DNA of 64,000 nt. Source: an uncultured Gammaproteobacteria bacterium (GTDB taxonomy: Bacteria; Pseudomonadota; Gammaproteobacteria; UBA9214). The stretch is taken from positions 64,001 through 128,000 of the forward strand of contig CAVVHS010000009.1 in NCBI GenBank assembly GCA_963748215.1. The letters run 5' to 3'. Shown one piece after another: positions 1 to 3,333 of the stretch (the stretch's first letter is position 1; the number at the start of each line of letters is the position of its first letter). The position numbers and the translations under genes were made by a program. Under the pieces are notes generated by a model. The model had not been told where the DNA came from. It worked only from the letters and a program-made list of their open reading frames with translations, and did no database searches.

Positions 1-347
1 CGTGCACCATGACGCGGTGCGTGAAACGCACCCTGCGGAGTCTGCCTCCGCGGTGGAATCATCGGGTAGGGTGCACTCCGTGCACCATGGCGCGGTGCGT
101 AACACGCACCCTGCGGATTCTGCCTCCGCACCGGGATCGTCGGGTAGGGTGCACTCCGTGCACCATTGCACGGTGCGTGAAACGCACCCTACGGATTCTG
201 CCTCTGCGCTGGAACCATCGGGTAGGGTGCACTCCGTGCCCCGTGACATGGTGCGTGAAACGCACCCTACGGATTCTGCCTCCGCGGTGGGATCGTCGCG
301 TAGGGTGCACTCCGTGCACCATTTCCGGTGCGTAAAACGCACCCTAC
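1..347. repeat. REP/BIME-like tandem array 1 (78-bp unit of two inverted GTAG-type REPs), inside the 5' part of the pilin ORF; truncated by window edge
   Basis: GGTGCGTnnnACGCACCCT(A/G)C hairpins at 16, 94, 172, 250, 327 and GTAGGGTGCACTCCGTGCACC hairpins at 66, 144, 222, 300; period 78 bp, last step 77 bp. Confidence 0.95.
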
Positions 348-1336
348 GACCCATGCACCACCGCGATCGTCAATCCGGCTTCACCCTGCTCGAGCTGCTG
401 ATCGCCCTGGCGCTCAGCGCCATCCTGTTTGCCGGGCTCGGCGGCATCGTCGGCCAGGCCATGGATACGCAGGACGCCGTTGAGACCGGCAACGACCTCA
501 CCCAACAGGCACGCTTCGCCATGGAGCAGATGGTGCGGATGGTCGGGCACACGCGCCTGCTGCTGCTGCCGATGGCGGACAAAACAGTCACCACATTCGT
601 CGAGAACATCCGCGAGCAGACCATCCCGGCGTCAACGCCACCCACCGGCAGCATCTACGCCACCGCCGTGCTGGCGGTGACCCTGCCGGCCACTTCTGAT
701 CTGGACGGCAACGGCATCCCCGATGCCGACAACGACGGCGACGGCCGGATCGACGAGGACCTGCCGGCCGATGTCGATAATGACGGCAAGCCCGGCATCC
801 GCGGTATCGATGATGACGGCAACGGCGTCACCGATTATTTTCTTTCACCAGCAGCCGACGATGATGAAAGCGGAGATTTGGCCCAGAACGAGGATCGTAT
901 CAACGGGCTGGATGACGACGGCGACGGCATCGTCGACGAAGACCCCGGGGCGGACAACAACGGCGATGGCTGTCCGGGGACCTGCGCGGTGGACGACGAC
1001 GCGGACGGCGCCCTGGACGAGGGGGCCGCGGCAGACGACGACGAGGACGGCGTCAGCGACGAGGACTGGTACGACCCGGTGGTGTTCTACCTGTCCGGTG
1101 GCAACCTGATGCAGCGCACGCCGGTGCCGTGGGATGAAAATGCCAGCGGGACAGTCACCGGACAGGATTACGTTGAACAGGTCATTGCCGAGCACGTCAC
1201 GCGCTTGCGGGTGGAACGCATTCCGCAGGGAGCCGGTCGCGCCCAGCTCGTCGATCTGACGCTGGTGCTGACAGATCCGCAGACGGGCGAGACGGTGAGT
1301 CTGAACACCCGTGTACGGGTCGGGGGTGCGTTGTGA
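2..1336 (+). CDS. Prepilin-type N-terminal cleavage/methylation protein (PilW/GspJ-like minor pilin) with Asp-rich DxDxDG repeats; true start outside window or at ATG 353
   Basis: RQSG|FTLLELLIALALSAILF type IV pilin motif with E5 (F+1 at 380); QQARFAMEQM helix typical of PilW/J; about 9 DxDxDG-like loops; stop overlaps next start (GTGA). Confidence 0.85.
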   Translation: MHHDAVRETHPAESASAVESSGRVHSVHHGAVRNTHPADSASAPGSSGRVHSVHHCTVRETHPTDSASALEPSGRVHSVPRDMVRETHPTDSASAVGSSRRVHSVHHFRCVKRTLRPMHHRDRQSGFTLLELLIALALSAILFAGLGGIVGQAMDTQDAVETGNDLTQQARFAMEQMVRMVGHTRLLLLPMADKTVTTFVENIREQTIPASTPPTGSIYATAVLAVTLPATSDLDGNGIPDADNDGDGRIDEDLPADVDNDGKPGIRGIDDDGNGVTDYFLSPAADDDESGDLAQNEDRINGLDDDGDGIVDEDPGADNNGDGCPGTCAVDDDADGALDEGAAADDDEDGVSDEDWYDPVVFYLSGGNLMQRTPVPWDENASGTVTGQDYVEQVIAEHVTRLRVERIPQGAGRAQLVDLTLVLTDPQTGETVSLNTRVRVGGAL

Positions 1337-3333
1337 GCCGTACGACGCCCATACATCGCACGGTGCGTGAAACGCACCCTACGCATTCTGCCGCTGCGGT
1401 GGAATCATCGGGTAGGGTGCACTCCGTGCACCATGGCCCGGTGCGTGAAACGCACCCTACGCATTCTGCCGCTGCGGTGGAATCATCGGGTAGGGTGCAC
1501 TCCGTGCACCATGACGCGGTGCGTAAAACGCACCCTACGGATCCTGCCGCTGCGGTGGAATCATCGGGTAGGGTGCACTCCGTGCACCATGACACGGTGC
1601 GTGAAACGCACCCTACGCATTCTGTCACTGCGGTGGAATCATCGGGTAGGGTGCACGCCGTGCACCGTTCCCGGTGCGTAAAACGCACCCTACGAACCCA
1701 GCGCGGCTTCATCCTGCTGCCGGTGGTGCTGGCCATCGTGCTCATCGCCACCATCGCCTTCCTGCTCAACAACCAGAGCGCCATCAATGTCGACAGCGCG
1801 GCGGGCGAGGCGCAGGCCCGGCAGGCGGACGCGATCGCCGCGGCCGGCCTGGCGCATGCCACCTGGGGTGCGCAGCACAGCGGCTGTGCCGGCGACATGG
1901 CCATGACGACAGTGCCGTTCGGCCAGGGCAGCTACGCCGCCACGGTGGATGCCGGTGGTGTGACAGCCACGCAGTACACCTTCACCCCGGACCGTGATGG
2001 CATCATCGAAGAGGGACACACCGATCACAACCATTCCGGCGACGACCTGATCAAGGTCAAGAATAAGCCGGGCGACACCATGCATGCGCTGTATCACTAT
2101 GACCTGTCGTCCATCCCGACCGACCGGAAGGTGGTGACGGCCACGGCCTGGTTTTACGTGGACACCGTGGATGACAAGGGCGCGGTGACAGTGCATCGGG
2201 TGACCGCCGACTGGACGGAGGCCGCTCTTACCTGGGACGCCGTCGGCGGTAAATTCGAGAGCCGGGTATACGGCAGCTTTCCGCCGCAGCCAGCAAAGGA
2301 CGTATGGGTGTCGGTCAACGTCACCGCGCTTGCCCAGAACTGGGTCAGTAACCCGGGCAGCAACTACGGCTTCCTGCTGAACGCGAGCTCCGACAATTTG
2401 GAGTCGAAATACACCAGCCGCGAGTACGGCACCGCCAGCCTGCGGCCCTACTTGGAGGTCACCACGGCCGACGCCGCGGTCTCGCCGGTAAATATCAGCG
2501 CTACCGGCACGCTCACCGGCAATCCCAGCCCGGCCAACGACATCTCACGTACCCTGACCCGAACAGCGGTACCGGCCTACCAGTCAGCTTCAAATCTTGT
2601 CCTGCAGCCCGACGCCGCAGCGGGCGAGGACGCGTATATCTGGCAGTGGGCAAAGAACAGCAACTACGGCACTGCCGATGAAACCTGGGTCGCTTCGACC
2701 CCGCCGGCAAACAACACGGCACTTGCCCTTTTCAGGTTTGATATGGCTGCGCTTCCGCCGGGCGCGAAGATCCTGGACGCCAGCCTGTCGTTGCATCACA
2801 GGGATGGCAACGACCCGGATGTGCCGGTGACGGCACACCGGATTACACGAGGCTGGGAAGAGGATTCTGTTACCTGGAACAACTACAAGACCGGTAACCC
2901 CTGGAGCACGGCCGGTGGCGATTTTGATGCGGCGGTAGTGGCGACCACGAACGTGGGTCCCGGCAATAATACCCGTTACGAGTGGGACATTACGAGCCTG
3001 GTGCAGGGCTGGATCAATGGCATTTATACGAATGAGGGTGTTGCGCTGCGTACAGTAGAACCGGGCATTTACGGCGAACGCTTTGATACCAGCGACCATG
3101 CCGACCCTGCCCGCCGCCCACGTCTGAGTATCACCTATGCCTGCGAATGCGGCAATCCCTGCCTGGCCCCGCAGGGCATGGGAACGGTGGCGATGGTGGT
3201 GATCAACCCGACGACGCTGGTCCCGGCGGATGCCTACAAGAAGGCACTGTTCGAATCCTGGGGCTACACGGTGAACGTCATCGGCGAGAATGCCAACGCG
3301 GCGGCCTACGATGACCGCTGCCGCCAGCAATGA
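1333..3333 (+). CDS. N-terminal part of giant PilX/GspK-like minor pilin-adhesin (pilin helix plus two DNRLRE-like beta domains); continues after frameshifts into 3330-6233
   Basis: TQRG|FILLPVVLAIVLIATIAFLL (no E5, as in PilX/GspK), QADAIAAAGLAHA PilX-like motif; two domains of the LQPDAAAGEDAYI...NYG...RFD...P.GA.I.DASLSL type. Confidence 0.8.
   Translation: MSRTTPIHRTVRETHPTHSAAAVESSGRVHSVHHGPVRETHPTHSAAAVESSGRVHSVHHDAVRKTHPTDPAAAVESSGRVHSVHHDTVRETHPTHSVTAVESSGRVHAVHRSRCVKRTLRTQRGFILLPVVLAIVLIATIAFLLNNQSAINVDSAAGEAQARQADAIAAAGLAHATWGAQHSGCAGDMAMTTVPFGQGSYAATVDAGGVTATQYTFTPDRDGIIEEGHTDHNHSGDDLIKVKNKPGDTMHALYHYDLSSIPTDRKVVTATAWFYVDTVDDKGAVTVHRVTADWTEAALTWDAVGGKFESRVYGSFPPQPAKDVWVSVNVTALAQNWVSNPGSNYGFLLNASSDNLESKYTSREYGTASLRPYLEVTTADAAVSPVNISATGTLTGNPSPANDISRTLTRTAVPAYQSASNLVLQPDAAAGEDAYIWQWAKNSNYGTADETWVASTPPANNTALALFRFDMAALPPGAKILDASLSLHHRDGNDPDVPVTAHRITRGWEEDSVTWNNYKTGNPWSTAGGDFDAAVVATTNVGPGNNTRYEWDITSLVQGWINGIYTNEGVALRTVEPGIYGERFDTSDHADPARRPRLSITYACECGNPCLAPQGMGTVAMVVINPTTLVPADAYKKALFESWGYTVNVIGENANAAAYDDRCRQQ
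1362..1693. repeat. REP/BIME-like tandem array 2, in frame inside the leader of the PilX-like gene
   Basis: B-type hairpins at 1362, 1440, 1518, 1596, 1673; A-type at 1412, 1490, 1568, 1646; period 78 bp, last step 77 bp. Confidence 0.95.

Follow-up and report, generated by a model that had tools for sequence, protein, structure and literature searches.

In-frame REP arrays at former leader-coding sites of a minor-pilin operon in an uncultured gammaproteobacterium

The DNA analyzed here, the window, is a stretch of 64,000 nucleotides from contig CAVVHS010000009.1 (C9:64001-128000) of an uncultured gammaproteobacterium. Across its left edge runs a minor-pilin operon in which three consecutive genes, the PilV-like geneA, the PilW-like gene 1 and the adhesin-like gene 2, are each preceded by a tandem array of repetitive extragenic palindromes (REPs). 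The three arrays, A, B and C, are open in the frame of the gene downstream. In relatives, the starts of these genes are coupled to the upstream stops, and inserts at the same places conserve phase and an open frame. By definition REPs are extragenic, and those annotated as "intragenic" at an N-terminus are usually put down to wrongly called starts. On the comparative evidence, we slightly favor the view that translation includes the array, making it part of the precursor, at least in gene 2. For the array of geneA, translation and its absence appear about evenly balanced, and for that of gene 1 translation seems somewhat the less probable outcome. Coordinates are those of the window (contig coordinate minus 64000), with negative numbers lying upstream of it; the genome under study (G000) comprises 3.52 Mb on 9 contigs.

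Array anatomy and open frames

Array A lies at -1058..-726, array B at -273..347 (1..348 within the window) and array C at 1362..1693, the latter two on the plus strand. Arrays B and C are REPIN arrays, built of REP doublets, with 15 and 9 REPs, respectively; array A has the same 78-nt unit. Tandem Repeats Finder returned a period of 78 for positions 1-348 (4.5 copies, 85% matches, 0 indels) and for positions 1359-1694 (4.3 copies, 93% matches). Mapping of the REPs themselves gave forward-REP steps of 133, 78, 78, 78, 78, 78 and 77 in array B, which extends 273 bp upstream of the window, and of 78, 78, 78 and 77 in array C. The final step of 77 bp, reported for both arrays in a preliminary description of this DNA, is therefore real. 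That description had also stated that both arrays are stop-free in the gene frame and that the final REP is read as RCVKRTLR just before the cleavage sites of gene 1 and gene 2, and translation bore out both statements. Genome-wide, the 78-nt unit's 28-nt spacer has 15 copies, all of them within arrays A, B and C. Judged by their sequence, the three arrays are copies of one operon-specific unit that is compatible with an open reading frame (ORF), and because they share this unit they count as one unit type and not as three independent events.

In the frame of gene 1, array B reads VRETHPT..SSGRVHSVHH. The gene frame is free of stops through arrays B and C, and the two other forward frames contain 4 and 14 stops (array B) and 10 and 1 stops (array C). 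The TGA and the TAG of the REP doublet fall in the same frame, and 2/3 of the forward frames of the unit are thus open by construction. Therefore, stop-freeness alone is weak evidence, and we rejected it as a stand-alone argument. Among the 17 REP arrays of at least 300 nt in this genome, a stop-free frame was found only in A, B and C (3/3 versus 0/14); in the other 14, stops interrupt each of the six frames. The occurrence of the sole open unit type, in the right phase, at three junctions fits selection for an open frame. The extragenic location by which REP families are defined was not found for arrays A, B and C, all of which lie inside open frames that run into the downstream genes. A genome-wide scan for arrays running into long ORFs returned 24 frames among 95 arrays; most of these look like spurious GC-rich ORFs or have a start of their own (e.g., a MutS-like gene), and the scan was not used.

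Gene 2 (1333..6233, plus strand, read in three frames in the window) has a single conventional start, GTG 1333-1335, which overlaps the TGA of gene 1 (1334-1336) as GTGA and is the ancestral coupled start of the gene. Counted from this GTG, the leader has 125 codons including the glycine of the predicted cleavage site (Gly 1705-1707, Phe 1708-1710, plus strand), and excision of 1360-1695 (336 nt) leaves a leader of MSRTTPIHRTQRG; the coordinates given in the preliminary description agree with ours in each of these points. With GTG 1333 as the presumed start, the array qualifies as an in-frame intragenic palindromic repeat. Gene 1, counted from ATG 353, extends over 353..1336 on the plus strand, with the leader MHHRDRQSG/F (here and below, a slash marks the predicted cut) and the Gly-Phe codons of its predicted prepilin cleavage site at 377..382 (plus strand). 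Its frame is open back to -292, just past the stop of geneA and 223 codons upstream of the glycine, and has an in-frame ATG at -277, 12 nt past the geneA TAG and 9 nt past an AGGA. The predicted leader of gene 1 would have 9 residues from ATG 353 and 219 residues from ATG -277. Array A is open in the frame of geneA (ATG -702..-289; MAG/LSYIEVLIA) back to ATG -1113, 10 nt past the preceding stop. Of the earlier statement that two pilin ORFs begin with an array, the arrays themselves stand; the frame of gene 1 begins at -292, outside the window, gene 2 encodes an adhesin and not a classical pilin, and a third array precedes geneA.

The gene 1 product has the features of a type IV prepilin: QSG/FTLLELLIALALSAILFAGL shows Gly at -1, a residue of the F/M type at +1, Glu at +5 and about 20 hydrophobic residues, and the protein matched Pfam N_methyl with 35 bits (cut-off, 21.2) and TIGR02532 with 27.6 bits. 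Gene 2 codes for two DNRLRE/CBM96 domains, further repeated domains and LamG, that is, for a large adhesin. Its N-terminus, QRG/FILLPVVLAIV, has Pro at +5 and carries what we take to be a signal like those of GspK and PilX. The predicted leaders are basic and hydrophilic, with an isoelectric point of ~11, a grand average of hydropathy of -0.5 to -0.8 and no hydrophobic window. In a Pfam search of the 126-aa REP-encoded leader, no family reached a meaningful score, and the self-splicing domain that marks an intein was not found. A prepilin peptidase gene (Peptidase_A24, 97.6 bits) is present at C9:256595-256924.

Several further features of the two proteins were seen. The middle of gene 1 (700-1070) encodes Asp-rich, DxDxDG-like repeats, many columns of which are invariant across orthologues; this run looks like calcium-binding repeats, which would be unusual for a minor pilin. 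Tandem Repeats Finder also reported a 42-nt repeat at 985-1064 in gene 1. The third frame of gene 2 contains, at ~5650-5700, a run of about 10 glycines (GGGGGGGGGGS) past LamG, and the gene has a weak match to the TafC fimbrial family (32.6 bits, far under the cut-off).

The REP units, GGTGCGTGAAACGCACCCTAC and GTAGGGTGCACTCCGTGCACC, are short imperfect palindromes (~20-25 nt) with a GTAG/CTAC tag. They belong to a dispersed high-copy family, with 434 sites in 143 clusters on the contigs of this genome (at most 3 mismatches). Its cognate transposase is encoded by a REP-associated tyrosine transposase (RAYT) gene at -3895..-3319 (C9:60105-60680; 183-aa ORF), present as a single close copy and with REP clusters on both sides. 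The ORF scored only 19.7 bits against Pfam Y1_Tnp, under the cut-off of 23, and its identity was settled by a match of 174.6 bits to NF047646 REP_Tyr_transpos (cut-off, 80; NCBIfam). The RAYT gene lies ~650 bp upstream of the minor-pilin operon, and it adjoins the pilin operon in G049 as well (78% identity). Such an adjoining RAYT gene may explain the REP density of the locus by local transposition. A further array, array 0 (-3306..-2901), occupies true intergenic space, between the RAYT gene and the pilA-like gene; its period is 113-115 nt, and none of its six frames is free of stops. From there the operon runs through the pilA-like gene (-2671..-2087), a fimT/gspH-like gene (-2048..-1494), a small membrane ORF of 99 aa (-1423..-1124), the PilV-like geneA, the PilW-like gene 1 and the PilX/PilY1-like adhesin gene 2. 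The 99-aa membrane ORF lies between fimT and geneA in some relatives (loci L038-L049), is absent in others and stands between gene 1 and gene 2 in G015b; it thus shifts place within the operon. Two more REP clusters of the window, at 9183-9425 (6 REPs) and 10812-11012 (5 REPs), are irregularly spaced and have no 78-nt period.

The preliminary description had proposed to look for an enrichment of REPs at prepilin genes. This did not emerge: the genome has 23 genes with a prepilin motif, and REP arrays within 200 nt upstream were present at just two of them, geneA and gene 1, both in this operon; one further gene has a single REP within that distance. Four prepilin-motif genes form a second cluster, on the minus strand at 84715-86033 (Gly codons at ~84715, 85116, 85571 and 86033), and in this cluster only the last gene has one REP within 200 nt upstream.

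Coupled starts and phase conservation in relatives

The operon is conserved at 12 loci in 11 genomes of the same genus. In relatives without an insert, the start of gene 2 overlaps the stop of gene 1 and leaders have 9-20 aa: ATGA with the leader MNGRHRSPG/F in G007, GTGA with MSRVRSTRRVACANDRRG/F in G052 and GTGATG with a 20-aa leader in G002. Relatives with short, array-free leaders, named beforehand as a check, were thus found. G000, G049 and G052 all begin with VSR at the same coupled GTG, and the array then follows in G000 and in its closest relative, G049. The ancestral ATG of gene 1 lies in the last codons of geneA (TATGAnTAG). Because each start overlaps the upstream stop in insert-free relatives, we read the positions of the arrays as former leader-coding sequence.

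The distance from the geneA stop to the glycine of gene 1 is 1 mod 3, and the frame is open, in 10/10 same-genus relatives (13, 28, 28, 37, 55, 79, 79, 136, 139 and 196 nt); G000 is the exception. Six of these 10 junctions hold 1-4 REPs, and in G006, one of the six, the ATG has become ACG. Array C of G000 and that of G049 differ in two units and in two indels, of 1 and 11 nt, that jointly preserve the frame. The unit of G013 has 63 nt, also a multiple of 3.

For a wider comparison, an alignment of nine gene 1 orthologues was used to fetch 23 metagenome and 47 genome loci, and the junctions were scored mechanically. The unique junctions numbered 43 between gene 1 and gene 2 and 45 between geneA and gene 1; G015b, which has a gene in between, was left out of the set of gene 1-gene 2 gaps of ≥90 nt. 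The close loci come from uncultured Gammaproteobacteria, some of them labelled Sedimenticola, Sedimenticolaceae or tubeworm endosymbionts. Gene 1-gene 2 gaps of <90 nt were open in 19/19 cases and 2 mod 3 in 18/19. Among the 23 gaps of ≥90 nt, those lacking an in-frame start at codons -7..-11 were 2 mod 3 and stop-free to an NTGA start without exception (9/9), and those with such a start (n = 14) comprised 4 open and 10 closed ones. This distribution gave a Fisher p of 0.0016 and, for the binomial against 1/3, a p of 5e-5, values that overstate independence since the loci are kin. Translation through the insert predicts such a pattern, that is, phase kept and a frame open to the coupled start when no other start is available. 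In L079, the coupled GTG at -48 is the sole in-frame ATG, GTG or TTG. Between geneA and gene 1, gaps of <60 nt were open in 29/29 cases; gaps of ≥60 nt (n = 16) were open in 7/7 cases without a near start and in 4 of the 9 cases that had one, the other 5 being closed (p = 0.034). The FimT-geneA gaps of ≥60 nt were all 2 mod 3 and open, with an NTGA start (14/14). A comparison of Shine-Dalgarno sequences was not decisive: in the closed group the genes' own starts often have GGTG(A) upstream, with at least 4 matching bases in 6/10, and the coupled starts also have GGTG, within conserved codons.

The inserts are palindromic and fall into at least five unrelated families: THP-type REPs in G000, G049, G013 and G018; 42-nt GGGGACAGTCCCC units in L057, L079, L096 and L101; an LRFARNDR-type element in L051; an GGGGTCAGAGTCGATTGATC element in G006; and an GGGGACATTCCTCATT element in L054. 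Despite kinship, at least five lineages with different elements follow the same phase rule. Gene 2 orthologues that bear an insert are mostly open to the end of the locus, in L051, L057, L074 and L079 for >900 codons. The second family is locus-specific in at least one genome and not a dispersed REP family: in G053, 9/9 double-palindrome and 11/15 single-palindrome matches of GGGGACAGTCCCC lie in the gene 2 leader. At this site (G053:C13:248646-248848, locus L096), the double palindromes form 42-nt in-frame units and are near-absent elsewhere in the 3.4-Mb genome.

Translated or untranslated arrays

The reading that we slightly favor for gene 2 would run as follows. The ancestral operon had no intergenic space, each start overlapping or abutting the upstream stop, and a REP inserted just past a stop would land within the leader-coding sequence of the next gene. 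One 78-nt REPIN unit (26 codons), stop-free in the gene frame, would have gone to fixation at each of three junctions in a row and multiplied there as a tandem repeat. Only in-frame, stop-free inserts would have survived, since translation of each gene would depend on its coupled start. Ribosomes from that start, GTG 1333 for gene 2, possibly ATG -277 for gene 1 and possibly ATG -1113 for geneA, would traverse the array. The precursors would thereby gain basic, His-rich, hydrophilic N-terminal extensions of ~125 aa (gene 2), 219 aa (gene 1) and 140 aa (geneA). These would remain cytoplasmic until the prepilin peptidase cuts at G/F (G/L in geneA) and removes them along with the native leader. 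The data show the anatomy, the ancestral coupled starts and the conservation of phase and open frame across relatives; that the coupled starts are used for translation in this genome, and that the leaders are cleaved, we infer. The preliminary description had seen in the discarded leader a harbor for REP insertion. In favor of this idea are the former leader-coding site, the phase kept in relatives, the basic leaders and the presence of a peptidase gene; against it stand the out-of-frame ancestral ATG of gene 1, the rival starts ATG 353 and GTG 1651/1660 and the missing Glu at +5 in gene 2.

A number of observations weigh against translation of the arrays, and many of them fit the alternative that these are ordinary untranslated intercistronic REP arrays. 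The genes would then start at ATG -702 (geneA), at ATG 353 (gene 1) and at one of two REP-borne GTGs (gene 2), no more than the last REP would be coding, for a short basic leader (MHRSRCVKRTLRTQRG/F), and it would be by accident that the frames upstream are open. ATG 353 lies five bases past array B and ATG -702 (MAG/L) directly past array A; since ATG 353 follows array B, this array may be untranslated. In gene 2, the in-frame GTGs at 1651 and 1660 (1651..1662, plus strand) lie in the last inverted REP, with AGGG at 1648-1651, 8 nt upstream of 1660, as a possible ribosome binding site; either could give a leader of 16-19 aa. In G049 the counterpart of ATG 353 is a GTG in a REP arm, which makes REP-borne starts plausible and indicates that REPs can supply leaders, and all THP-type REP inserts in relatives bear in-frame REP-borne GTGs at -7..-17. 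The ancestral ATG of gene 1, at -296, is out of frame in G000 (gap of 665 nt, 2 mod 3), so that only ATG -277 or ATG 353 can start this gene. A REP near -215 is degenerate and two bases shorter than the consensus, and an assembly error there could explain the lost phase. Gain or loss of a 78-nt unit never breaks the frame, and 2/3 of the forward unit frames are open in any case. Nor was there any sign of constraint at the peptide level: the 11 units had no codon-position bias (33/18/19 substitutions at positions 1/2/3) and showed 12 synonymous versus 44 nonsynonymous codon changes. Apparently nothing beyond stop avoidance is conserved in the peptide, which fits a discarded leader and untranslated DNA equally. 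The RNA fold of the array region is very stable (-215 kcal/mol over 411 nt, z = -5.9) and could hinder translation. Furthermore, the gene 2 product had no N_methyl or PilX_N match in Pfam even at E ≤ 5 and has Pro in place of Glu at +5; its cleavage by prepilin peptidase is therefore an assumption, and at a noncanonical site. Finally, Di Nocera et al. warn in their main text that N-terminal intragenic REPs are often a matter of misannotation (PMC3733652). Untranslated arrays nevertheless leave unexplained why 9/9 and 7/7 startless insert junctions are in phase and open to the upstream stop, why L079 has no start besides its coupled GTG and why, of 17 large arrays, only A, B and C are stop-free. 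In addition, GTG 1651 and GTG 1660 are buried in the stem of the REP hairpin, and no purine-rich stretch was found upstream of ATG 353. We leave this alternative a substantial minority chance of being correct.

Hairpin arrays could also have been selected for a role of the RNA or DNA itself, such as throttling or stabilizing parts of the transcript, setting the ratio of tip adhesin to minor pilin or enforcing coupling, and would then be in frame only because they lie inside a coding leader. This explanation, which we hold to be rather unlikely, is compatible with translated arrays and adds a function to them. Unrelated palindrome families at the same leader position in different lineages, the near-confinement of the G053 GGGGACAGTCCCC palindromes to the gene 2 leader and the very stable fold all argue for it, and REPs are reported to act on transcripts of flanking genes (PMC3733652). 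On the other hand, the elements of G000 plainly belong to a genome-wide, RAYT-linked family and the operon sits beside the RAYT gene, where local transposition pressure could suffice; many relatives are insert-free, and 19/43 gene 1-gene 2 gaps are <90 nt. A more speculative version, which is quite unlikely to hold, regards the leaders of stop-coupled minor-pilin genes not as a mere dumping ground but as a recurrently used slot for GC-rich hairpin arrays. Unrelated palindromes, some confined to the locus, would be recruited in frame; translation would melt the hairpins and gate downstream output, above all that of the single-copy tip adhesin; and the His-rich basic peptide might act in the cytoplasm before its removal by PilD. 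If true, this would be a new way to embed an RNA-level regulator in a discarded protein segment. That the whole arrangement is an assembly artefact, with arrays wrongly collapsed or expanded, or a decaying locus with gene 2 as a pseudogene, is highly improbable. The two frameshifts of gene 2 in the window and the broken frames of gene 1 and gene 2 in G049 could be taken that way, as could the lack of a public contig across a whole array. Against this are the homologous in-frame arrays of the independently assembled G049, G013 and G006, the insert-bearing gene 2 orthologues of L051, L057, L074 and L079, open for >900 codons, and the metagenome contigs described next.

In the window, gene 2 shifts frame (+1) twice, near 3313 (site 1, 3310..3313) and 3434 (site 2, 3433..3434; both plus strand), and relatives have a single ORF of 1264-1693 aa. 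Logan contigs from four metagenome runs (X1-X4) of two studies were compared with window positions 1-3600. At 3310-3313, every covering contig is one base shorter (4/4 runs), and so are the contigs of X1, X3 and X4 at 3433-3434, where X2 has no depth. Removal of both extra bases restores one gene 2 ORF of ~1630 aa. Since the extra base is missing at both sites from public contigs of the two studies, gene 2 is intact in the sampled populations, and its frame breaks probably reflect errors of the consensus or a peculiarity of the strain. The junctions of array B with gene 1 and of gene 1 with array C are supported by contigs that cross 173-525 (X4) and 980-1425 (X2) gap-free; contig joints and loose ends at 345-353 and 1646-1696 derive from other REP copies. 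Misassembly, which the preliminary description had listed as a possible refutation, is thus countered at these two junctions. No Logan contig of the four runs spans a whole array, and the numbers of units rest on the assembly. With two probable single-base errors in gene 2, phases of ±1 within the arrays are not beyond doubt either, and this, too, weighs against translation of the arrays.

Relation to known systems and significance

REPIN/RAYT systems and arrays of the bacterial interspersed mosaic element (BIME) type consist of inverted REP doublets in hundreds of copies, with a single REP-flanked RAYT gene and intercistronic positions within one operon, and are classically extragenic. The doublets, the copy number, the RAYT gene and the position within an operon are alike here, but no extragenic space existed at these junctions, and the downstream gene's frame runs open through the arrays. 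Class III signal peptides usually have leaders of ~5-30 residues. The signals predicted here share with them a leader with a basic end and Gly at -1 and, past the cut, a hydrophobic +1 residue and a hydrophobic stretch of about 20 residues, and in gene 1 also Glu at +5 and N_methyl, but the leaders would be 125-219 residues long, and gene 2 lacks Glu at +5. With inteins, only the logic is common, namely a selfish insert that is tolerated because it is removed posttranslationally; here there is no splicing domain, and removal would be by the host peptidase, along with the native leader.

Intragenic REPs as such are known already, and the earlier statement that no description of the arrangement exists was too strong. 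The main text of Di Nocera, De Gregorio and Rocco (2013; PMC3733652) reports that GTAG/CGTC REPs of RAYT-bearing genomes occur inside ORFs, often as dimers or groups, and that clusters encode 43-82 aa. N-terminal intragenic REPs are noted there as well and are suspected to be harmless or misannotated. Compared with that account, the arrays described here comprise 9-15 REPs (112 to ~210 codons) and are placed, in each of three successive genes, between a start that overlaps the upstream stop and a cleavage site of the prepilin type, and the conservation of phase across genomes argues against misannotation. According to the main texts of PMC3733652 and PMC3184786, Rickettsia palindromic elements (RPEs) lie in frame in genes that stay functional, and N-terminally decorated proteins are said to be expressed; in-frame RPEs and other repeat-ORF fusions are reviewed in the latter (PMC3184786). 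RPEs and the arrays are both in-frame palindromes in protein-coding genes. An RPE stays in the mature protein, whereas the insert described here would presumably be removed with the segment that contains it, belongs to another family and host group and forms tandem arrays instead of single inserts. The words "pilin" and "pilus" are absent from the main text of PMC3733652, pilins and signal peptides are unmentioned in the main texts of both papers, and no paper linking REPs to prepilin leaders was found in a literature search outside of which lay the supplement of PMC3733652, which may list pilin genes. What appears to be new, and is partly supported by the data presented here, is that tandem REPIN arrays of up to ~210 codons are confined to cleavable class III leaders and recur across lineages and element families, with comparative support for their translation.

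The conservation of phase among relatives offers a testable case for the translation of whole REP arrays. The system is simple, and the size of the precursor with and without PilD would report on the effect of leader length on pilin processing. If the arrays are indeed translated, minor-pilin starts in REP-rich genomes may lie far upstream of their annotated positions, a warning for annotation. A cleavable class III signal peptide would then absorb >100 extra residues, extending the known range of leader length several-fold, and the operon would show how overlapping genes accommodate selfish palindromes.

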